From the NCBI GenBank assembly GCA_031316235.1, contig JALDRA010000001.1, forward strand, positions 2,430,001-2,462,000: a DNA stretch of 32,000 nt, written 5' to 3'. This DNA comes from Candidatus Scalindua sp. (GTDB lineage: Bacteria; Planctomycetota; Brocadiia; Brocadiales; Scalinduaceae). Shown piece after piece: positions 2,069 through 30,980 of the stretch. A program made the position numbers and the translations under genes. How positions within the stretch are numbered: the stretch's first letter is position 1; the number at the start of each line of letters is the position of its first letter. Below the pieces are notes generated by a model. The model did no database searches. It had not been told where the DNA came from and worked only from the letters and a program-made list of their open reading frames with translations.

Positions 2069-2206
2069 TGTTGTTTGAACGAAAAGTACTCATCTACTGC
2101 GTTGCTGTAATAATTTCGCAATCCTCACGTACTTGAGTACGTTCCGGTTACGAAATTATAACGCGCCTTGTATATGGGCACTTTTGGTTCAACCACTGGG
2201 TTTCCT
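2065..2206 (+). repeat. ~140-bp long imperfect-palindrome (hairpin) element, copy 1, starting at the aconitase stop codon
   Basis: It aligns by eye over ~140 bp with the reverse complement of 11223-11365, including an identical 32-mer aatcctcacgtacttgagtacgttccggttac. It is itself a long hairpin centred on acgtac-ttga-gtacgt (2127-2142). Confidence 0.8.
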
Positions 2207-2414
2207 TTTAAGCACTAAGTAAAATCTATGCAAACTTTTCCGGATGTTTAACAACACCTATCCTCTTTATGCTGATCCAAGCACTGACTTTCAATTAGCA
2301 ACATGTTATGATTTGTAGATAATAACTCGAACACGCAAAAAGCATAACCTGAAACTTCTGACAGTTTTTGCTTTTGGTTATTGCATGTTCGCTTTTCATG
2401 ACAAAAAATGTTAT

Positions 2415-2440
2415 ATGAAGTAGTGGTCAATAGTGTTTCA
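2415..2440. repeat. 26-bp lox/dif-like site, copy 1 (left arm degenerate)
   Basis: Sequence atgaagtagtggtcaatagtgtttca. The right 19 nt are identical to copy 2 (4077-4102). It lies exactly where ParE-like homology ends. Confidence 0.6.
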
Positions 2441-2790
2441 GAAATATTATCTTTCTCGATTCTATAATAAATTGCATATGGAAATCGCTTGAGTAGACAT
2501 CTCCTAAAGTCTTTGTATACTGTTTGATATATTAATGGGGTTCGTTGTATTGTGCAGGAAAGAGCATAAAAAACACGAAGAAATTCTTCACCAAGTCCGA
2601 TAGCTGTTTCCTCATACCAACTATAACCTTATATAATATACTCATTTCATAATGGTTTTCGGATAAAATCCGAGAAAAAACGGAGCGAGTATAACTGCAA
2701 CCAAGATTTGGTTTTCAGAAAAACCGAAAACCAAATCGGTTTTAGTATATCTTCTTCTGATTCAGGAAGAAACGATAAAGAATAAATCAT
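2441..2790 (-). pseudogene. ParE/RelE-family toxin remnant, split by a MITE-like element and 3'-truncated
   Basis: On the minus strand, ATG at 2790 gives MIYSLSFLPESEE. The 115-bp element 2636-2750 follows, then GYSWYEETAIGLGEEFLRVFYALSCTIQRTPLIYQTVYKDFRRCLLKRFPYAIYYRIEKDNI. An in-frame TAA sits at the junction. The ATG overlaps the TGA of the upstream antitoxin remnant (ATGA). Confidence 0.7.
2636..2750 (+). mobile_element. MITE-like element, copy A (short class, 115 bp)
   Basis: Ends are atatactca...ttagtatat (inverted). Internal hairpins are tcggat-aaa-atccga and ggttttc...gaaaacc. It aligns along its full length with copies at 15522-15639, 28951-29094, 29641-29755 and 30838-30980. Confidence 0.8.
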
Positions 2791-2996
2791 TTCCTTTTTT
2801 GGATACGTGCTTGTAATTCCTTAAGAGACAATAGTTCACCAGGAGAATAATTTTTTTTCAATCGATATTCTAGCTCTTTCTTATGACTTTCCGGCATAGG
2901 AATATCAGATTCAATAGATGAGATACTATCCCAGAGATCTTCTAAAAAAAGTATCTTTTCTGGGACCTTAGCACTTACCTTCGCCGACCCGAAAAA
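2787..2996 (-). pseudogene. addiction-module antitoxin remnant (no start codon)
   Basis: The open frame FFGSAKVSAKVPEKILFLEDLWDSISSIESDIPMPESHKKELEYRLKKNYSPGELLSLKELQARIQKRK* has a LEDLWDSI core. From memory this resembles the 'putative addiction module component' antitoxin family. Its only Met is internal. Its TGA overlaps the ParE-like ATG. Confidence 0.5.
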
Positions 2997-3232
2997 TTAT
3001 AAAAAGGAATAACTTTCATATGTGTTCTTGTTCGGCCAGGTTTTTAAATGTTTTTCTTTAGCACATTGAAGCTGTGGTAAAACAGTCTATAAGGTGACGC
3101 CTTCCCGGATCAATCGGTTCGAACTGGCAGTCAAAAAAGCAAGAAATTGTCGGCTTGGACACTAAGTTTTTTCTAAGACAAGCTTAGATAAAAAGCCTCT
3201 TTCAGCGGGTTGTCATTCATCAATAATAATTC

Positions 3233-3258
3233 GAAACTGAATGGACAATTGTGTTTCC
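3233..3258. repeat. 26-bp lox/dif-like site, copy 1b
   Basis: Sequence gaaactgaatggacaattgtgtttcc matches copy 4 at 21 of 26 positions. It lies ~40 nt downstream of the vapC stop. Confidence 0.6.
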
Positions 3259-3299
3259 TTCATTTTGCAGGTATACCCTACTTGTCAGGAAAGCGATGG

Positions 3300-3725
3300 T
3301 TATTTATTGGATTCCCAAGGATTGATAATCTTAATACCGCAACCTTCAAAATCCTTGGTATTTCTTGTAGCTATAGATGCTCTCTGTGATTTGACAATAG
3401 CTGCAATCATTAAGTCCACCACATCGGTATTAAATCCATCTTTCTCAAGTTTTGCAGCCATAACACCATAAATATAGGCGGCTTCCTCATCGAAAGAGAA
3501 AATACGACCACCGAAAGCATCTGTGATAAAGGCAGAAAAATTAATTTCCAGTGTGTTGCGCCGCTTACCTTTTGGTAAACGTGCCAAGCCCCTTTGAATC
3601 TCTGCAATAGCTATTGTTGTTAATGCCAAGTTGGTTGGTTTTTGCGCAGCTATCCACTCTTTTACATTTTCATGTGGTTCTTCGCGCATGAGTTCCGAAA
3701 TGATGTTAGTATCAAGAATAATCAT
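3300..3725 (-). CDS. vapC: PIN-domain toxin, VapC/FitB-like
   Basis: MIILDTNIISE... with PIN acidic residues (LDTN, SE, DLMIAA, TRNTKDF). The ATG at 3725 overlaps the vapB TGA (TGATG). The track start at 3728 is a TTG one codon upstream. Confidence 0.88.
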   Translation of the reverse strand: MIILDTNIISELMREEPHENVKEWIAAQKPTNLALTTIAIAEIQRGLARLPKGKRRNTLEINFSAFITDAFGGRIFSFDEEAAYIYGVMAAKLEKDGFNTDVVDLMIAAIVKSQRASIATRNTKDFEGCGIKIINPWESNK

Positions 3726-3970
3726 CAATTAAATTCAATATGTTGACGCTTAGAGCTTCGCTCTGGTAATTCAATATCAACACCATGTTTGGAACCAAAA
3801 TATTTTTCAGCCATATCCAGAATGTTAACAGGTTTCAAGCCGTTTGCGCAGGATGCTTTCCTTAGAATTTGACGGACATAGGACTCAAGAGAAACCCCAG
3901 ATTGAGCCGCATGGATACGAAGAGCCTCTTTTGTTTTGTCCGACAAATTACGTATTGTAATACTAGCCAT
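3725..3970 (-). CDS. vapB: ribbon-helix-helix antitoxin, VapB/FitA-like
   Basis: MASITIRNLSDKTKEALRIHAAQSGVSLESYVRQILRKA is a typical RHH N-terminus. The gene is translationally coupled to vapC. Confidence 0.82.
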   Translation of the reverse strand: MASITIRNLSDKTKEALRIHAAQSGVSLESYVRQILRKASCANGLKPVNILDMAEKYFGSKHGVDIELPERSSKRQHIEFN

Positions 3971-4076
3971 TAATATCTCCTTATGAAGTCATTGTAATCA
4001 TTGCAATCATTGATGTCAATATATTATTTCGTATGATAATAGGTCGTAAAGCCTGTTATGTAACATCGGAGAATTG

Positions 4077-4102
4077 TAAACAGAATGGTCAATAGTGTTT
4101 CA
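4077..4102. repeat. 26-bp lox/dif-like site, copy 2
   Basis: Sequence taaacagaatggtcaatagtgtttca matches copy 4 at 24 of 26 positions. It lies 108 nt upstream of the vapB start on the minus strand. Confidence 0.7.
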
Positions 4103-4595
4103 GATCATCGCCAGTTCAGAGCCCACCCATGTCCTTGGTATTGATGATCCACAAAATGCTGTCACCTTCCCCATAGAAAGACGACAACCTCCTACTTTCA
4201 TTCCTCTTAAACCCTTCTTTCTTCGTCTGTGTAAAAAATACATTAAGACATGTCATATACCAATACACACGAAAACCGCATAAAGGAGTTTTAAGAGGAT
4301 GGAGAGAAATAACAGATTTTACACACCTGATTAAACACCATGTTCATCAGCCAAAAATTTGTAAGATTGTTCATGACACACCAGCAAAGAAAACGGGGGT
4401 TTGTTTAACAATGTACCGCTTACGCTTTTTCACTAATATTTGAGGAGCTTAAAGAGGTAAGGTAGCCGGTAAAATAATCTACGTAATAGTCCAATAAAGA
4501 TTTTTGAGTTTTTTTACGATTTACCTCCAAATGGAAAACAGCATTATAAAAGCCTTAAAAACCAAGACCTCATAAGGGCAAAAAAAATAATTGGC

Positions 4596-5720
4596 CTAAC
4601 TTATAACCCTGCTCTCTTTAAACCCCCAATCATCAAAGAAAGCACCATCGTCTTTAAGACGATCCATAGACCTATAAGAAAAAAGGCTTGCACATGAAGC
4701 ATAACGATATATTAAGTCTTGTTTTTCTTTTTGATGAAGCCCTTCCCACCAACTTGGAGTCATAAAAACATTGTCGCAAAATTCAAAGAAAAACCTAATC
4801 AAAGAATTGGTTATGGAACAATGGGGGATATTCGATAAGCTCTCAATAAATTTACTACACATTCCCATACTGTCATTGTCTTCTACCCAACTAAAAATAA
4901 CAACACCACCACCACTATCTGTTGAGATCGAGGAGAAAGTAATTAATTCATTGGTCTTGTCTAGATTAAAAATATTTTGTAAAGCATTTCCATGAAAGTC
5001 GCATTCAGGGAATATACCAGCACTACATAAAACAGATGGCGTCTTTTGGAAATAAATTATGTAAGCTTTTATTTGGCTATAATCTTTTGCCATTAATATC
5101 TTGTCGAACTTTTCCTTGTAATATTTTGCATCACGTATTCCAGCTATCACAGCCTCACTATAGTTAAGATGCCTAGCCTGTATATCGAACTGATCTTCAA
5201 CACTTCTCCCCTTATCAGACTCTCTTAAAAAATCTAATGTATCAGCTTGACAAAACTTAAGAAACCCTTCTCTGGCTTGTGCTCTATATGCAAGAAGAAA
5301 ACATTGCTCTTTGTCACCAATAAAAGGTTTGTCCTCTAAAGGTTTAAATAATTCATTATCGTGATATTCACAAAATCCGTTAAAAACTGATGCCTTATTT
5401 ATGCCAAGCAACTCAGGGGGAAGAAGTCCATCATGTTGAGATCGGTTTTTAAAACTTTCTACTTTAAACGCATATATATGGCCATTTTGAGCAATTCTTT
5501 TTAAACTACTAATTGATACCGTGTGAGCCTTTACAATGCCTCCTTTGCATTGGCCTTTGTGACAATCAGCTGCATAACAATATTTTTTGCTAAACGATTT
5601 CTTGATAGATTTGATAAATTCCCACGGTTTATTAGGCTCATCCTTGTCACGATCTAAATGACATTTTTTATATTTCCTTTGTGATCCGCACCAACAAGGA
5701 CTATTTCTGCCGAGCTTCAT
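4596..5720 (-). CDS. SEC-C-motif protein of unknown function
   Basis: The N-terminal NSPCWCGSQRKYKKCH is a SEC-C zinc-binding motif. The rest is unrecognised but has Cys/His clusters (CHKGQCKGGIVKAHTV ... NGFCEYHDNELF). Confidence 0.6.
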   Translation of the reverse strand: MKLGRNSPCWCGSQRKYKKCHLDRDKDEPNKPWEFIKSIKKSFSKKYCYAADCHKGQCKGGIVKAHTVSISSLKRIAQNGHIYAFKVESFKNRSQHDGLLPPELLGINKASVFNGFCEYHDNELFKPLEDKPFIGDKEQCFLLAYRAQAREGFLKFCQADTLDFLRESDKGRSVEDQFDIQARHLNYSEAVIAGIRDAKYYKEKFDKILMAKDYSQIKAYIIYFQKTPSVLCSAGIFPECDFHGNALQNIFNLDKTNELITFSSISTDSGGGVVIFSWVEDNDSMGMCSKFIESLSNIPHCSITNSLIRFFFEFCDNVFMTPSWWEGLHQKEKQDLIYRYASCASLFSYRSMDRLKDDGAFFDDWGFKESRVIS

Positions 5721-5770
5721 TTATTTTTTGATAAACATCTAATAGCTTAATAGAAATATGAATTTACTGA

Positions 5771-6355
5771 CTATGACCACATCCGGGAAGCAATGCCGCG
5801 CTGTTCTTCTCCTAATGCGTTGGCATATATTGCAGTCATTTCAAGGCTTGAATGCCACAACCATTTTGAAAGCATGTTAAGAGGTACGCCTTTAGAGATT
5901 GCGTGTACTCCAAAGCCATGCCTTAGACCCTTCGGGCTTTTATGTGGGCCGTCAGGTATTCCGGCTTCATCCATAACGGATTTAATATAACGAAATCCAG
6001 TCATAAGCGACCAGGGCCATAAAGGTTTATTAAGGATAGTCCTTTTTTTAGTTTTTAAAGCCTCTGTAAGGCCATGAACCATATCAATGGTATCAAGTGC
6101 CTCTTCGGGAATTGGAACGACCCGGTGAATGACCTTACCCCGTTTTTTGAGTGATTTAAATATAAGCGCTTTTTCTGAGAGGTCTACAAGCTTGGGTGTT
6201 AATGAAAGGGCTTCGCTGATTCTGCATCCAGTATAATGAAGGGCAAAGCAGAATGTACGGATTTCTCTCGGGGCCTTTTTGGCCGCTTCGAGAAAGTCTT
6301 CTCTTTCTTTTGAGGTAAGATAAAGCCTCTGTCCTTTTGAATCGATTAACTTCAT
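5771..6355 (-). CDS. small (about 194 aa) tyrosine recombinase, catalytic domain only, FimB/FimE-sized
   Basis: Catalytic signature: Arg in TGCRISEAL, then KGLRHGFG (xLRH box), then WHSSLEMTAIY (His/Trp plus the Tyr nucleophile). The likely start is ATG at 6355 (MKLIDSKGQRLYLTSKERE...). The track ORF extends 22 codons further upstream. Confidence 0.85.
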   Translation of the reverse strand: MKLIDSKGQRLYLTSKEREDFLEAAKKAPREIRTFCFALHYTGCRISEALSLTPKLVDLSEKALIFKSLKKRGKVIHRVVPIPEEALDTIDMVHGLTEALKTKKRTILNKPLWPWSLMTGFRYIKSVMDEAGIPDGPHKSPKGLRHGFGVHAISKGVPLNMLSKWLWHSSLEMTAIYANALGEEQRGIASRMWS

Positions 6356-6366
6356 AATTGTTCGTT

Positions 6367-6396
6367 TTGTTACAATACTTATAGGAAGTGTAACAA
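6367..6396. promoter_or_regulatory. inverted repeat TTGTTACA-N14-TGTAACAA just upstream of the recombinase start
   Basis: Perfect 8-bp arms at 6367-6374 and 6389-6396, 12 nt from the ATG at 6355. Confidence 0.4.
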
Positions 6397-6451
6397 TAAC
6401 AACTAAAGAAATGCAATTCAAGGACTAAACTAATACGAAAAGAGGCAAATT

Positions 6452-6480
6452 ATGTTACAGAATACCCTATTTTGTAACAT
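6452..6480. promoter_or_regulatory. inverted repeat ATGTTACA-N13-TGTAACAT
   Basis: Perfect 8-bp arms at 6452-6459 and 6473-6480. The same TGTAACAT half-site recurs 11 nt left of site copy 2 (4059-4066). Confidence 0.4.
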
Positions 6481-6490
6481 TGGGGAATCT

Positions 6491-6516
6491 GAGACAGATT
6501 AGTGTATTCTGTTTCA
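6491..6516. repeat. 26-bp lox/dif-like site, copy 3 (most symmetric variant)
   Basis: Sequence gagacagatt-agtgt-attctgtttc(a). The 10-nt arms are complementary at 8 of 10 positions around a 5-nt centre. Confidence 0.65.
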
Positions 6517-6554
6517 AACCGGTCTGTACGAGTTGCAAATTATTGGTAAAAAAT

Positions 6555-6617
6555 ATTTAACGCCTCGCATCAGAGGCCTGGCCGTAGGCCAGATCCGTCT
6601 GCATGCGCTTGTTAGCT
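6555..6617 (-). other. attC-like folded recombination site (A)
   Basis: Minus strand: AGCTAAC-aag-cgcat(g)cag-[ctggcc tac ggccag]-ctgatgcg-aggc-GTTAAAT. It has an RYYYAAC-like box overlapping the TAG stop of 6616..7665 and a perfect GTTRRRY core. It also has an unpaired spacer, a stem with one bulged G, and a terminal hairpin. Confidence 0.55.
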
Positions 6618-7665
6618 AGCCATCTTTTTGATCATTATTATCGTTTCGATGAAGTGGGTATGGGTACGGAATTAGCTGCCCAAACATTCCCATAACCATT
6701 AACCATAGCTTGCTAGTGCGTGATTGAATTCTTGATAACTCCTGAGGGTTTTCAGCTTTTACTTCACCGTGATTTATCGAGTTTCTGATGTCGTATAGCC
6801 GATTAACAGTGTCTTCACGATTGAAGCACTCATCAATGAAGTGATCAGCAGATTCTCCGAAACAAACTCCAATTGCATGGATTGCTTTTGTCTTTAAACC
6901 AGGATTAACCACAGTGGTATAGGCTTCTTGGATAAACGCCGGAGATACTTTTCCTCCATGTGATACAAATATTGCTTCAATCTTATCCTGCTTTTCGACC
7001 TTTGTTTGTTTTTCGTATGGTACAGCTAGGCATATCGCATCGACTAAACACTCAAAAGCGTTCCAGTATGCGGCATAAATTTTCAGTAAGTCAGGACTAG
7101 ACAAATCCATCATTGGTTGTTTTGGATCCCTTATCCAAAACAGGGCAGCTTCAACTTTTCCTGAAATTTTTGGGTGAATCGATACGGCACCTTCAACAGC
7201 GCGACCTAGGTCGTCATGGTTCAATTTGGTTTTTACGCCACCACCTCCACCATCATGGGTAATATGCGACCACCAACCACAATGGCAATTAGTCCGTGTC
7301 ACAAGTGTAAATGCACCCAAAAATAAATTAATTCTTCTCGATGCATCTAATATCGATGCAATCGATTTGTCGTTAATTGTCGCTTTTGCTTTATGAACAG
7401 TTCTTTCATTTTTAATGACTGTATTTTTCAAGTTCTCAGGAAAAACTGTTATTCCTAAGCTTTCAATTTCGAATAATTTGTCTAATGGCTCAAAGTCACC
7501 AAAGATTAAAAATACAAAATCGTCACCCCAGTCTTTGGGCCAGTGTTCAATACGTTGCTCAAGGTGAGCAAGGCCAGAGGCATGAACCCATTCCAGACCT
7601 TCGGATTGCAGTTCCTTTACCCGATCAAAATATTTATGAATCTCTGGGGGTGTTTTAGTGGCCAT
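6616..7665 (-). CDS. hypothetical protein with C-terminal HEPN-like Rx4H motif
   Basis: 349-aa ORF. The C-terminal LYDIRNSINHGEV contains R-N-x-x-x-H, the HEPN RNase signature form. The rest is unrecognised. The start lies 26 nt after attC-like site B. Confidence 0.55.
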   Translation of the reverse strand: MATKTPPEIHKYFDRVKELQSEGLEWVHASGLAHLEQRIEHWPKDWGDDFVFLIFGDFEPLDKLFEIESLGITVFPENLKNTVIKNERTVHKAKATINDKSIASILDASRRINLFLGAFTLVTRTNCHCGWWSHITHDGGGGGVKTKLNHDDLGRAVEGAVSIHPKISGKVEAALFWIRDPKQPMMDLSSPDLLKIYAAYWNAFECLVDAICLAVPYEKQTKVEKQDKIEAIFVSHGGKVSPAFIQEAYTTVVNPGLKTKAIHAIGVCFGESADHFIDECFNREDTVNRLYDIRNSINHGEVKAENPQELSRIQSRTSKLWLMVMGMFGQLIPYPYPLHRNDNNDQKDG

Positions 7666-7690
7666 TGACTGAATTTAAACGTTGAAAGAT

Positions 7691-7778
7691 GGCTAACGCC
7701 CGGGCTCAGGGGCGGTAAAAAAGCGTAGCGAGGAACGAGCGCAGCTTTTTTTACGTCCCTTGGAGCCCATTGTTATGT
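7691..7778 (-). other. attC-like folded recombination site (B)
   Basis: Minus strand: ACATAAC-aat-gggctc(c)aaggg-[acgtaaaaaaagc...gcttttttaccg]-cccctgagccc-gggc-GTTAGCC. It begins 4 nt after the TGA of 7782..8480 and has the same TAAC-AAK...RGGC-GTTA frame as site A. Confidence 0.55.
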
Positions 7779-7781
7779 GTT

Positions 7782-8480
7782 TCAATTGTCTTCACTCACA
7801 AAGCCAAACCTACGATGGAGCCAGCTAATCAGCAAAGGGTACATTAGCAGAAATGCCAAAACACCAAACCCAGACTTAACATAAAACTCCACTTGCGGAG
7901 ATAGCCCAGACACTTCGGTTACTTCAAATGGCAATATAATCGGGTTTTCCAGCTCATAAGAATCGCGGTTAATAGACGGCTTGTACCATTTGGAAAATGG
8001 CAGCTCAATAAATGACAATGATAATTGATTGGAGCCTGCACTCTTTGGTCTGTAACTCCAACTCCAGCGCGCTTCCTCATCTAGTATTTGTTTTGCTGTA
8101 AAAGATTTTTCTTTTGAAGGTGACACTGATATTTCAGGGCCAGAAAGTTCTACTTTTAGCGGTTTAGTGTTCTCCGCGTTCAAGCCGCTGAAAATAGGGG
8201 GAATAAGTCGAAAACTCAGTGTGCCAGTTTCAGTAATGCTAATTCTTTTGTCATACACTATCGTCAATTCACCGACATCCTTGGTCATGGACAAAAGGGC
8301 CGGGATATATGGTGTATGAGATACTACTTCTGGTTTACCTGCCTTCACTGAATTCTTGTCTTCTTCGTATGCAAGAAACGTAACGATGTTAATGCCGATA
8401 CCAATCAGAGCAGCAACAACTGCTAAGCTGACCTTTAAGCTTGAAGATAAGGATATGATGTATTTGTTGAATTCGTTCAT
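7782..8480 (-). CDS. membrane protein, N- and C-terminal TM helices, unknown function
   Basis: 232-aa ORF with hydrophobic segments LAVVAALIGIGINIVTFLAY and GFGVLAFLLMYPLLISWL. No family recognised. Confidence 0.55.
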   Translation of the reverse strand: MNEFNKYIISLSSSLKVSLAVVAALIGIGINIVTFLAYEEDKNSVKAGKPEVVSHTPYIPALLSMTKDVGELTIVYDKRISITETGTLSFRLIPPIFSGLNAENTKPLKVELSGPEISVSPSKEKSFTAKQILDEEARWSWSYRPKSAGSNQLSLSFIELPFSKWYKPSINRDSYELENPIILPFEVTEVSGLSPQVEFYVKSGFGVLAFLLMYPLLISWLHRRFGFVSEDN

Positions 8481-8709
8481 ATCTCTACTTTACACATAAC
8501 AGTTAAATGGACTGCGACTATGTTATCAGAAATATACGGCGGCTGTATATTTCGAATATCATGACAAATTTCTGTTCTAAAGAAGAAACAATCTGCCCTT
8601 ATCGGACGGTCACAATCAGGGTATTATATAAAATGTGAAATAAAATGACATAACAAAATACATTGATGTGATTAAGAAAATAACAGTTATGGCTACGTGA
8701 TTTTTATGT

Positions 8710-8735
8710 GAAACAGAATGGTTAATAGTGTTTCA
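8710..8735. repeat. 26-bp lox/dif-like site, copy 4
   Basis: Sequence gaaacagaatggttaatagtgtttca. It is followed by the same ~45-nt conserved linker as copy 3. Confidence 0.7.
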
Positions 8736-8771
8736 AATTAGTCTGTGCGGGTGCAAATTATAGGTGAAAAA

Positions 8772-8838
8772 ATTTAACGTTTGAGTAAAGCTAGCCTGTT
8801 TGGCAAATAAAGCTATTAATACAAGAAACGTGTTAATC
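8772..8838 (-). other. weaker attC-like site (D)
   Basis: Minus strand: GATTAAC...GTTAAAT, with the same R' core as site A. TTAAC/GTTAA and gttt/aaac pair, but the inner stem is poor. Confidence 0.3.
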
Positions 8839-9068
8839 ATTGGGCGCAGGGAGTTTTCCACCCTGCGCCAAACTCATTTTTTTCATCAATTGGTTTGCTA
8901 AAACACTACCTCAAGGATAATTTCAAATAAGTAGAATTATCAAATGATTAAGCATCATTGTCCGCTTCGTACACACCTCTCAAAGAGGTATTGCCCTTTA
9001 CAATTTCTTCCACGCCCCCTTTGCTACTTTTCTGTTTGCCCAAAAAGGGCGTTTATATTTCCTACTCT

Positions 9069-10787
9069 CTAATGAACAGTTGGCAATCGTAAACTACTCA
9101 AAAACGTTCTTAACGCTAATCTGTCATTATCAGAAAGACTTTCGAATTTTGCAATAGAGCCGTTAGCCTCGCTGCCAGTTCCTTTATGCATGAGAATGGC
9201 TTCAGTCAGAGTCAGCGCTCGACCATCGTGCATCCATGGTGCCGTATCAGCCACTCCCCACAGTGGACGGGTTAAGAACTCATTTTCAGGGATCTCTTGG
9301 CCACCATCTGTTTTCTGGGTAATAGGCTCTTCCAGAACATTTCCCATCTTATGTCGCTTTAAATCGCTGTAGAGCGGCACATCGATTTTCCCGTTTTTAT
9401 GAGGAAGACGGGGCAGAGTTTCCGGTGGACCATCCTCACGGTTAAGATTGCGGGAGTAGCCTTTTAAGTTTAATAGAATCTCTTTCGCAACCATCTCCGC
9501 AGGAGTCTTCCCTTCAACAGATTTCAACAATTTCATTTTCTTTTTTATTGAATATTTCTCCAATGATGGTGACACACTATAAGGCACCGTAATCCCAAAT
9601 CTCTCCGCTTTCTTCCCTAACTTCCTTAATTACTTTTTGACCACGGAGTGAGGAAATCCTTTCTCTACCTTGTCTTTCATCGCCTTATCTGTTCTCGGAT
9701 CTCGAATTGTCGCAAAGGGACTGTCGATTGTAAGGCTTGGGGTATGGCAGGAGGCGCAATCAGCGCTCATAAAAATATCTCTGCCTTGCTGAACCCTCTG
9801 TGCATCAAGTCCCCTGGAAGACTCAGTTGGGGGTCTTACAAAAGCAAGGAACGTGGCAACAGCACTGATGTCACCTTCAAGTATCTCATTCGTTGCGTCA
9901 TCGGAATTGCCATCCAAATCATTGAGTTCTGGATTTGCCTCAAGAAATTCCTTAGGTTGCACGCTGAAATGAAAATTCATGGCGTCCCTGATGAAGTTTC
10001 GTAGATTGCTGGCTATTCCTCTCCATTGAAAAGGTCGAACGAGGAGGTCATGACTGACACCGACAACATCGCTAAAGTCGACTGTTCAGCCCTGATCAGT
10101 GACAATTTTTCCAAAGGACACTCCTTTGGTGACAAGCTCCACCATATTCCCTGGATTTGCCTGTGCCTCAGCTAATTTCTCCTGCAAATCCCAAGTCATT
10201 TCTTCTGCTAGAGTTTGTGTGTACCCAGCTCCAAATGCGTGCGGAGGGTTCCGGATAACACCCCTGGTCGGATTGGTGGAATCACACTCTTCGCTCTCAG
10301 GCTCGCACCCGAAATTCTCCAATCCAAAGGCACTAGAAGCAAATCCTGCACCCCCAGCGGTAAATCCTAGTTGTTTGGCAAAACGGATTTTGGGTTGATC
10401 GTTAGAATAATTTTTCTGAGGCGCAAACCCAACAGCTAAATGACACTCAAGGCACGATTGTGAATCGAGCCCATTAAAATGCAGGAACGGATAGTTCTCC
10501 CGGTCATCCATTGTATACTTACTGCGTCGTGGTCCGGTGGGACCTTCACCATAATGATCTTCAGTTGTAAAACGGTTTGAGAAAATATGTTTACCAGCGT
10601 AAAACAAATCTTCAAACGGCACTTTATTTTGATTGATGTCATCTTGACTAAAACGGACCTCATCGATGAGATTACGTTGGTCTGCTAAAGGCTGGTCCGT
10701 CCTTGAAGCTATACTACTGCAACCTACTGCGACGATGATGATGATTGATACAAAAATCCACAAGCGAATCTTTGTTCCATTTCTCAT
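9069..10787 (-). pseudogene. di-haem cytochrome c peroxidase-like lipoprotein (DUF1111-like) with two in-frame stops
   Basis: Three track ORFs share one frame (ends 10841, 9980 and 9587 are all 2 mod 3). They are separated by TGA (10086-10088) and TAA (9630-9632). Motifs present: CLECH, CASCH, DLKRHKMG, TAPWMHDGRALTLTEAILMH. The signal/lipobox is MRNGTKIRLWIFVSIIIIVAVGC, from the ATG at 10787. Confidence 0.65.
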
Positions 10788-15521: not shown

Positions 15522-15639
15522 TCTCTACTGAAACCGATCTGGTTGTAGATTTTTCTGAAAACCAGAGCCTGGCTGCCGGTACATCCGCTCAATTTTATCT
15601 CGGATTTTATCCGAAAACCATTGTAAGATGAGCATATAC
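15522..15639 (-). mobile_element. MITE-like element, copy B (short class, ends degenerate)
   Basis: Its reverse complement aligns with copy A (…caatggttttcggataaaatccgagataaaattgagcg…ggttttcagaaaaatc…gatcggtttcagta). Confidence 0.7.
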
Positions 15640-28950: not shown

Positions 28951-29094
28951 ATATACTAAAAGCGATCTGGTTTTAGATTTTTCTAAAAACCAAAACCTGT
29001 TTGCTGATATCCCCGGACAAAAAGCGCCGAGGACTTTCCCCGCTCCGTTTTTTTCGCGGATTTTATCCGAAAACCATTATAAGATGAGTATTAT
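28951..29094 (-). mobile_element. MITE-like element, copy C (long class, 144 bp)
   Basis: Its reverse complement aligns with copy E, including the extra ~28-nt internal block (…aaagtcctcggcgctttttgtccggggata…). Confidence 0.8.
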
Positions 29095-29629: not shown

Positions 29630-29640
29630 GCAGATAGCAG

Positions 29641-29755
29641 GTATACTCATCTCATACTGGATTTCGGATAAGATCCGAGATAAAATTGAGCGAGTATACC
29701 TTCACCAAGCTTTGGTTTTTTAAAAAGCCAAAAACCAAATCGGTTTCAGTATATA
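29641..29755 (+). mobile_element. MITE-like element, copy D (short class, 115 bp)
   Basis: gtatactcatctcatactggatttcggataagatccgag…ccaaaaaccaaatcggtttcagtatata. It ends 15 nt before the cytochrome gene ATG. Confidence 0.8.
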
Positions 29756-30622: not shown

Positions 30623-30838
30623 ATGAATACGTGCAGTTTGTCTGATTTTATGGAAATTCTTAAGCCCTGGCTTTCACGTGATTATCTTCAGAAAGCCTCC
30701 CTGGATAAAGAGGGTCGTTTAATAGTGCTCTTCACGGACGGTATACAGAATGTATACCACATTAAAGATTGTACGGCTGATCAATTAAAGGAGATTCTTG
30801 ATGATTTTAAAAAGAGAGGTATCGAGGTTGAAGAGTAA
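30623..30838 (+). CDS. small hypothetical protein (71 aa)
   Basis: Good SD (aaaggagag) 6 nt before the ATG. No family recognised. Its stop abuts MITE copy E. Confidence 0.5.
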   Translation: MNTCSLSDFMEILKPWLSRDYLQKASLDKEGRLIVLFTDGIQNVYHIKDCTADQLKEILDDFKKRGIEVEE

Positions 30839-30980
30839 TATACTCATCTCATACTGGATTTCGTATAAAATCCGAGAAAAAAACGGAGCGAGTAAAGTCC
30901 TTGGCGCTTTTTGTCCGGGGATACCTTCACCAGGATTTGGTTTCCGGTAAAACCGAAAACCAAATCGGTTTTAGTATATA
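30838..30980 (+). mobile_element. MITE-like element, copy E (long class, 143 bp)
   Basis: atatactcatctcatactggatttcgtataaaatccgag…aaaaccgaaaaccaaatcggttttagtatata. It shares the internal block with copy C. Confidence 0.8.

Follow-up and report, generated by a model that had tools for sequence, protein, structure and literature searches.

A probable two-cassette cluster of attC sites without a neighbouring integron integrase in Candidatus Scalindua

The DNA analysed here (the window) comprised 32 kb of the chromosome of a metagenome-assembled genome (MAG) of Candidatus Scalindua, a marine anaerobic ammonium-oxidizing (anammox) planctomycete. It contained two hairpin sites, A and B, that very probably are integron attC sites and that were located at the 3' ends of two consecutive genes. 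On the minus strand, the order of the features was an open reading frame (ORF) designated ORF232 (8480..7782), site B (7778..7691), ORF349 (7665..6616), site A (6617..6555), and a tyrosine recombinase gene (6355..5771). Site A measured 63 nt, from the R'' box AGCTAAC (6617-6611) to the R' box GTTAAAT (6561-6555), and read AGCTAAC-AAG-CGCAT(G)CAGA(C)GG..CTGGCC/GGCCAG..CCTCTG-ATGCG-AGGC-GTTAAAT on the gene strand. Site B measured 88 nt, from the R'' box ACATAAC (7778-7772) to the R' box GTTAGCC (7697-7691), and read ACATAAC-AAT-GGGCTC..-A/T stem-..GAGCCC-GGGC-GTTAGCC. The coordinates, strand and sequences of both sites were correct in the original prediction made for this DNA, as was its claim that the first box of site A overlaps the TAG stop codon (6618-6616) of ORF349. 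Site B indeed started directly after the TGA stop codon (7784-7782) of ORF232, but at a distance of 3 nt instead of 4 nt, and the next ATG (7665, ORF349) followed the end of site B closely, but after 25 nt instead of 26 nt. Both sites were present on the same strand with a spacing of 1074 bp, and a promoter scan found nothing above chance. The whole locus was identical in a second assembly (Logan contig, run SRR28338161) and belonged to an island (approximately 2100-9000) with a low guanine-plus-cytosine (GC) fraction (0.36-0.40, versus about 0.45 outside).

By definition, an attC site forms an imperfect hairpin of 57-141 bp, made up of an L box, a central spacer that stays unpaired, a variable terminal structure, and pairing RYYYAAC/GTTRRRY boxes with an invariant AAC/GTT; its bottom strand carries extrahelical bases on the L'' arm, usually G at position 16 and T at position 23/24, separated by a 6-bp stem (PMC5027507). 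The lengths of sites A and B fell inside this range, and AAC or GTT was present in all four boxes. The boxes pair over TAAC/GTTA, and DNA folds constrained in the R box reproduced the unpaired spacer, the bulged inner stem, and the L stem in both sites, as had been proposed. The registers of the bulges were taken from the folds and from alignments to the covariance models described below. Site B carries the canonical G16/T23 pair with a 6-bp stem: the bulged C16 of the top strand corresponds to G16 on the bottom strand, the unpaired A23 corresponds to T23, and six stem positions lie between them, one of which is mismatched (A x C) on the top strand and forms a T.G wobble on the bottom strand alone. 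In site A, the unpaired bases of the bottom strand were C16, G21, and T24/A25, positions 16 and 24 being separated by 6 bp. The unpaired bases of both sites lay in the arm that faces the bottom-strand 5'-AAC-3'. With DNA parameters and the R box constrained, the bottom strand folded more stably than the top strand, both in site A (-14.1 versus -13.3 kcal/mol) and in site B (-19.5 versus -17.9 kcal/mol), the published mean difference between the two strands being 2.12 kcal/mol (PMC5027507).

The boxes alone prove nothing, as the simple pattern TAAC-N35-65-GTTA was not enriched in the window (17 matches versus 13 expected), so that a structure-aware model was needed. Because Rfam gave no match in the window at its gathering thresholds, two attC covariance models, R1 and R2, were built without any window sequence, in place of the curated model of IntegronFinder. 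Class 1 integrons on plasmids were located using the IntI1 protein, and model R1 was made from the attC sites read off downstream of seven genes (aadB, aadA1, aadA2, blaVIM-2, aacA4, arr-3, and aac(6')-29a), with an imposed structure in which a 7-bp R box is followed by a spacer of 5/6 nt and by an L box divided into 3 bp, the position-16 bulge, and 6 bp. When the whole window was scanned on both strands with filters off, R1 ranked site A first, with 21.9 bits (E 0.001), and site B second, with 20.6 bits (E 0.0025); its next-best match had an E-value of 2. To generalise the model, 80 metagenome loci encoding relatives of IntI (55-100% identity to IntI1) were used. All 78 matches of R1 (E <= 0.04; 79 intI-bearing loci) were located upstream of intI and on the opposite strand, i.e. 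on the cassette side and strand, which validated this model. Model R2, rebuilt from these 78 intI-adjacent attC sites, scored site A at 20.5 bits (E 0.0025) and site B at 40.0 bits (E 1.9e-8), in both cases exclusively on the gene strand, with a single further match (8772-8838, E 2.5). Both sites aligned end to end with the models (positions 1-61 of 61 and 1-85 of 85). As a negative control, R2 gave one match at E <= 1 in 848 kb of DNA, covering 80 loci with homologues of the small recombinase described below. The covariance-model check that accompanied the original prediction thus singled out sites A and B as the only significant matches in the window.

Further evidence came from the gene between both sites. 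A hypothetical protein of a Candidatus Scalindua MAG has the same sequence as ORF349, for which 172 homologues were detectable, none of them with a Pfam domain. An unrelated metagenome contig (L185) encodes a homologue that is 84% identical. The nucleotide homology between this contig and the window (7697..6603) begins exactly at the G of the site B box GTTAGCC, the upstream DNA being unrelated. From this homology, the left boundary of a second cassette was derived, consisting of ORF349 and attC A (6561..7696, minus strand; 1136 bp), preceded by the 3' part of a first cassette (7697..8480, minus strand), with ORF232 and attC B directly after its stop codon. The same left end, GTTAGCCAT, was common to six contexts (the window, L185, L096/L097, L090, L098, and L092), each time following a different sequence. 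In addition, several homologues were accompanied by attC sites. In an uncultured Desulfobacter (L090, 630-kb contig), the homologue and the next gene, which encodes an FRG domain, were bracketed by three attC matches; in a metagenome locus (L098/L099), the homologue was found inside an array of four attC sites; and in L096, one attC site was located upstream of the homologue. The attC sites of the ORF349 family shared the same architecture with unrelated sequence. Indeed, among ten attC sites from homologue contexts, the L helix was 95.6% paired, with changes on both sides in 6 of the 9 pairs, and the covariation score of 0.44 was reached by none of 500 shuffles (0.14) and compared with at most 0.11 for slid controls. 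Concerning its function, ORF349 contained an Rx4H motif, RNSINH, at about residue 305 and matched CARF_HEPN of PADLOC weakly (E 0.0023). One homologue adjoins DruA and an FRG-domain gene, so that a HEPN-type defence or toxin function is possible. ORF232 displayed hydrophobic stretches near both ends and matched no family in Pfam or NCBIfam scans. A near-perfect palindrome of 21 nt (ATGATATTCGAAATATACAGC/GCCGTATATTTCTGATAACAT; 8520-8562), 40-80 nt upstream of its start, could be an operator.

When the larger ORFs were compared with Pfam and NCBIfam, neither an integron integrase gene (intI) nor an intI pseudogene was found in the window, and a tblastn search with IntI1 and VchIntIA gave a best E-value of 3.8, in agreement with what had been stated before; this search reached 6.5 kb to one side of the attC sites and 24 kb to the other. 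What the original prediction had left out is the tyrosine recombinase gene (5771..6355, minus strand), which follows site A on the same strand at a distance of 200 bp and the product of which (194 aa; Pfam PF00589, 1.3e-18) consists of a catalytic domain only. This protein is not an IntI and stands outside the integron system. Both the N-terminal domain and the IntI-specific insertion are missing from it, and it scored 29.9 and 23.1 bits with the integron-integrase models of NCBIfam, versus cutoffs of 265 and 435. Its best NCBIfam and PDB matches were XerA/XerD and FimB/E-type proteins, all distant and far under the curated cutoffs. The possibility that it represents a decayed IntI was rejected on the basis of these scores, the missing domain and insertion, and the tblastn result. 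Sites A and B have neither an IntI with the insertion nor an attI site next to them, as a complete integron would.

The small recombinase belongs to a very large, plasmid-associated family (4938 matches), members of which occur in multiple copies in Vampirovibrio, Melainabacteria, and Jiella, and are common in Rhizobiales. An 89%-identical copy was encoded by a plasmid-like contig (L186, with Rep3, relaxase, T4CP, and ParA). Two residues of the window protein, at positions that hardly vary, set it apart from 14 relatives (R117L and G167W). A 209-aa integrase encoded by L092 was considered as a further relative and rejected (BLASTP E 3.7). In another Scalinduaceae MAG (L103), only fragments of the recombinase gene were found, the attC and the 27-nt site described below being absent.

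Taken together, sites A and B are considered, with a probability of about 90%, to be bona fide attC sites, the region 8480..6555 of the Scalindua chromosome forming a two-cassette cluster of attC sites that lacks an integron integrase (CALIN), [ORF232-attC B][ORF349-attC A]. This proposal, already part of the original prediction, was supported by the models, the folds, the L185 boundary, and the attC-bounded homologues. As the genes end in attC sites, they probably represent mobile gene cassettes stranded without an integrase. What the analysis established was the attC signature in sequence and structure, its statistical significance, the exact cassette boundary, the fact that other lineages carry the same gene as a cassette, and the lack of intI in the window. 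According to Cury et al. (2016, PMC4889954), a CALIN comprises two or more attC sites on one strand, separated by less than 4 kb, and the pair corresponds to this description. As in other CALINs, the ORF preceding each attC has no assigned function and seems to lack a promoter, the attC sites are mutually dissimilar, no intI or pseudogene is nearby, and the cassettes contain no homologues of resistance genes. Nothing essential differs from a typical CALIN, although the cluster is of minimum size (two sites) and is located in a mosaic island that is delimited by sites of an unrelated family of tyrosine recombinases. Compared with the attC sites of class 1 integrons (aadA1/aadA7) and the Vibrio cholerae repeats (VCRs), both sites have the same R''-spacer-L''-terminal structure-L'-spacer-R' layout, the same G|TT crossover, the same position-16 bulge, a bottom-strand T at position 23/24, and a stop codon that overlaps or abuts R''. 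In particular, the ends of site B (TAACAAT-GGGCTC-C-AAGGG...CCCCTGAGCCC-GGGC-GTTA) closely resemble those of the VCR consensus. Unlike these well-known sites, those of the window have no adjacent IntI or attI, pair over 4-5 bp in the R boxes, and, in the case of site A, have C as the first extrahelical base.

Several observations weigh against this assignment. One of the four boxes fitted RYYYAAC/GTTRRRY at 7/7 positions and the other three at 6/7, and the R boxes paired over just 4-5 bp (TAAC/GTTA, plus one outer pair in site A). The base at position 16 of site A, C, is atypical, G being usual. The E-values rest on shortened calibrations and home-built models, not on IntegronFinder thresholds, and site A alone was moderately significant (E about 0.001-0.005). 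The alignment used for the covariation analysis was fitted to the model, which biases its pair counts upward. Furthermore, no attC site was detected at the homologue loci L183/L184 (83%; the closest after L185), L094/L095, L100, and L101, indicating that the ORF349 family is not always cassette-borne. Finally, the 5' boundary of the first cassette was not found. The sole upstream candidate was a weak attC-like element (8772..8838, minus strand; GATTAAC...CTCAAACGTTAAAT) upstream of ORF232, which scored 9.1 bits with R2 and did not fold better than shuffled sequences (z +0.2). It was rejected as a third attC because of its E-value of 2.5 and its lack of a fold, and may be either the remains of an attC or a coincidental match.

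The location of both hairpins at gene 3' ends would also be expected of Rho-independent terminators, or of other stem-loops of 3' untranslated regions, that end in TAAC and GTTA by chance. Both hairpins folded better than shuffled sequences (z -2.3 and -3.3), and a T-run is present about 12 nt past the stem of site A. A terminator scan, however, found nothing at site A or B, and no T-run abuts either stem. Moreover, the fit of the full-length attC models extended to both R boxes, the spacer, and the position-16 bulge and was confined to one strand, the cassette boundary coincided with the G|TT of R', and members of the same gene family were followed by attC sites of unrelated sequence and the same architecture, which makes terminators a highly improbable explanation. 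The proximity and common orientation of the recombinase gene would also be in line with a miniature integron-like system, in which the 194-aa recombinase uses folded attC-like sites. Indeed, a Rhizobium MAG (L144, 3749-3835, minus strand) contained a strong attC match (29 bits) directly following the gene of a small-recombinase homologue. Alpha-proteobacteria have been reported to lack both integrons and CALINs. However, the L144 match was the sole case among the 80 homologue loci, and a general association between these recombinases and attC sites was therefore rejected. Instead, many of the recombinase loci inspected contained conserved, double-stranded, palindromic sites with an arm-N5-arm architecture, 30-400 bp upstream of the recombinase gene. 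Their counterparts in the window are two GTTACA-type sites (6452-6480 and 6364-6393), the first of which is 94% identical to its counterpart on L186; the homology to this plasmid-like contig begins exactly there, and no attC was found on it. In addition, the ORF349 cassettes of L090 and L098 have no such recombinase nearby, and the recombinase lacks the IntI domain and insertion mentioned above. That the hairpins are sites of this recombinase is therefore hardly credible.

A different question is whether the cassettes are orphaned at all. They could be a detached part, or a secondary-site insertion, of a functional integron of which the IntI is encoded elsewhere in the 4.15-Mb chromosome, and might still be shuffled. 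This represents a sub-case of the CALIN assignment, with no contradiction between both. Half of all known CALINs occur in IntI-encoding genomes (PMC4889954). Moreover, both attC sites are well preserved, site B retaining the canonical G16/T23, and integrons have been reported in Planctomycetes. On the other side stands the window without IntI, within the reach given above, and nothing speaks directly against an IntI elsewhere, which is a serious possibility, if somewhat short of an even chance.

If the cassettes behave as described for other integrons, the plus strand of the window, which corresponds to the predicted recombinogenic bottom strand of the attC sites, would fold each site into an imperfect hairpin when single-stranded (PMC5027507, PMC4889954). 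The R box (TAAC/GTTA) and the L box would pair, with the unpaired central spacer between them, and the extrahelical bases of the L'' arm would tell IntI which strand to bind. IntI would then cut between A and C of the bottom-strand 5'-AAC-3', i.e. at G|TT on the gene strand, so that, on the gene (top) strand, the crossover of site A is predicted between G6561 and T6560, and that of site B between G7697 and T7696. Recombination between attC B and attC A would excise ORF349 and attC A as a circle of 1136 nt, which could re-insert at an attI site or at a secondary GTT site. The cassettes were probably put in their present location by an IntI encoded elsewhere in the genome or in a former host. 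The sites may still be recombination-competent, and the cassettes would now be cargo in a low-GC mosaic island (approximately 2100-9000), together with toxin-antitoxin (TA) modules and a plasmid-type small recombinase.

This island harbours an array of two-armed sites of 27 nt (GAAACA-type; TGAAACAGAAT-N5-ATAGTGTTTCA), present at 2416-2442, 3234-3260, 4078-4104, 6488-6518 (inverted), and 8711-8737. The copies delimit small modules, namely a TA remnant, VapBC, a SEC-C protein with the recombinase, and the two attC cassettes. Since sites with the same architecture and a shared arm motif were found upstream of many recombinase homologues (in many of the 80 loci), the 27-nt array looks like that of this recombinase family and not like that of an integron. 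The original prediction had described the attC sites as embedded in an array of 26-bp sites. This was right as to location, as the CALIN lies between the 27-nt copies at 6488 and 8711, but the arm motif matches the small recombinase family and is no part of an integron. In addition, a leader of about 65 nt (ACCWATAATTTGCAMCYCGYACAGAC) is duplicated on the minus strand (6495-6561 and 8715-8778; about 80% identity). Both copies start at a GTTAAAT box, namely that of site A and the weak one of the element at 8772-8838, and run into a 27-nt site. No copy of the leader was seen next to the remaining 27-nt sites or in the other genomes examined. It might be supposed that the two cassettes are cargo of a second, non-integron site-specific recombination system, which is unlikely. 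Two variants would fit, namely the integration by a small plasmid-type tyrosine recombinase of a circle consisting of the leader, a 27-nt site, and the two attC cassettes, or a repeated use by IntI of a GTTAAAT secondary site within the extended site of that system. The leader duplication thus is a hint, not a demonstration, of an interplay between two recombination systems. The array resembles the pdif/Xer-bounded modules of Acinetobacter plasmids, in which short, two-armed, double-stranded sites likewise surround TA-type cargo. Unlike those, the window sites resemble the sites of the 194-aa, catalytic-domain-only family and not XerC/D sites, and the copies are not alternating (four direct and one inverted).

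Further features were noted in the window. A VapB/VapC TA pair is encoded by 3300-3970 (minus strand), and an apparently truncated second addiction module (2647-3019, minus strand) is interrupted by a dispersed repeat. Dispersed repeats of about 100 nt with internal palindromes belong to two families (2634-2751, 29639-29755, and 30836-30980; 15526-15635 and 28954-29091), which resemble miniature inverted-repeat transposable elements or repetitive extragenic palindromic sequences and are unrelated to the attC sites. At the margin of the low-GC island, two neighbouring ORFs (9069-9587 and 9630-9980, minus strand) each correspond to a part of the di-haem oxidoreductase (DHOR) family, as if one gene had been split or had decayed.

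The cassette pair is a member of a well-described class, CALINs without an integrase being common and already described (PMC4889954). Because CALINs are already known to be abundant, the pair confirms known biology and does not extend it. A full-text literature search for Scalindua and integron gave four papers, none of them relevant and none with either word in its title or abstract. Judged from its sequence features, the pair would add a verified set of two integron cassettes for an anammox planctomycete. The ORF349 family would represent a widespread, Pfam-less family of about 345 aa that moves between Planctomycetota and Desulfobacterota contexts, and is possibly HEPN-like. The sole lead beyond known biology is that the R' boxes abut a duplicated leader and a site resembling that of another recombinase family. 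Either of the two variants given above for the second system would, if true, indicate crosstalk between integron recombination and another module-shuffling system.

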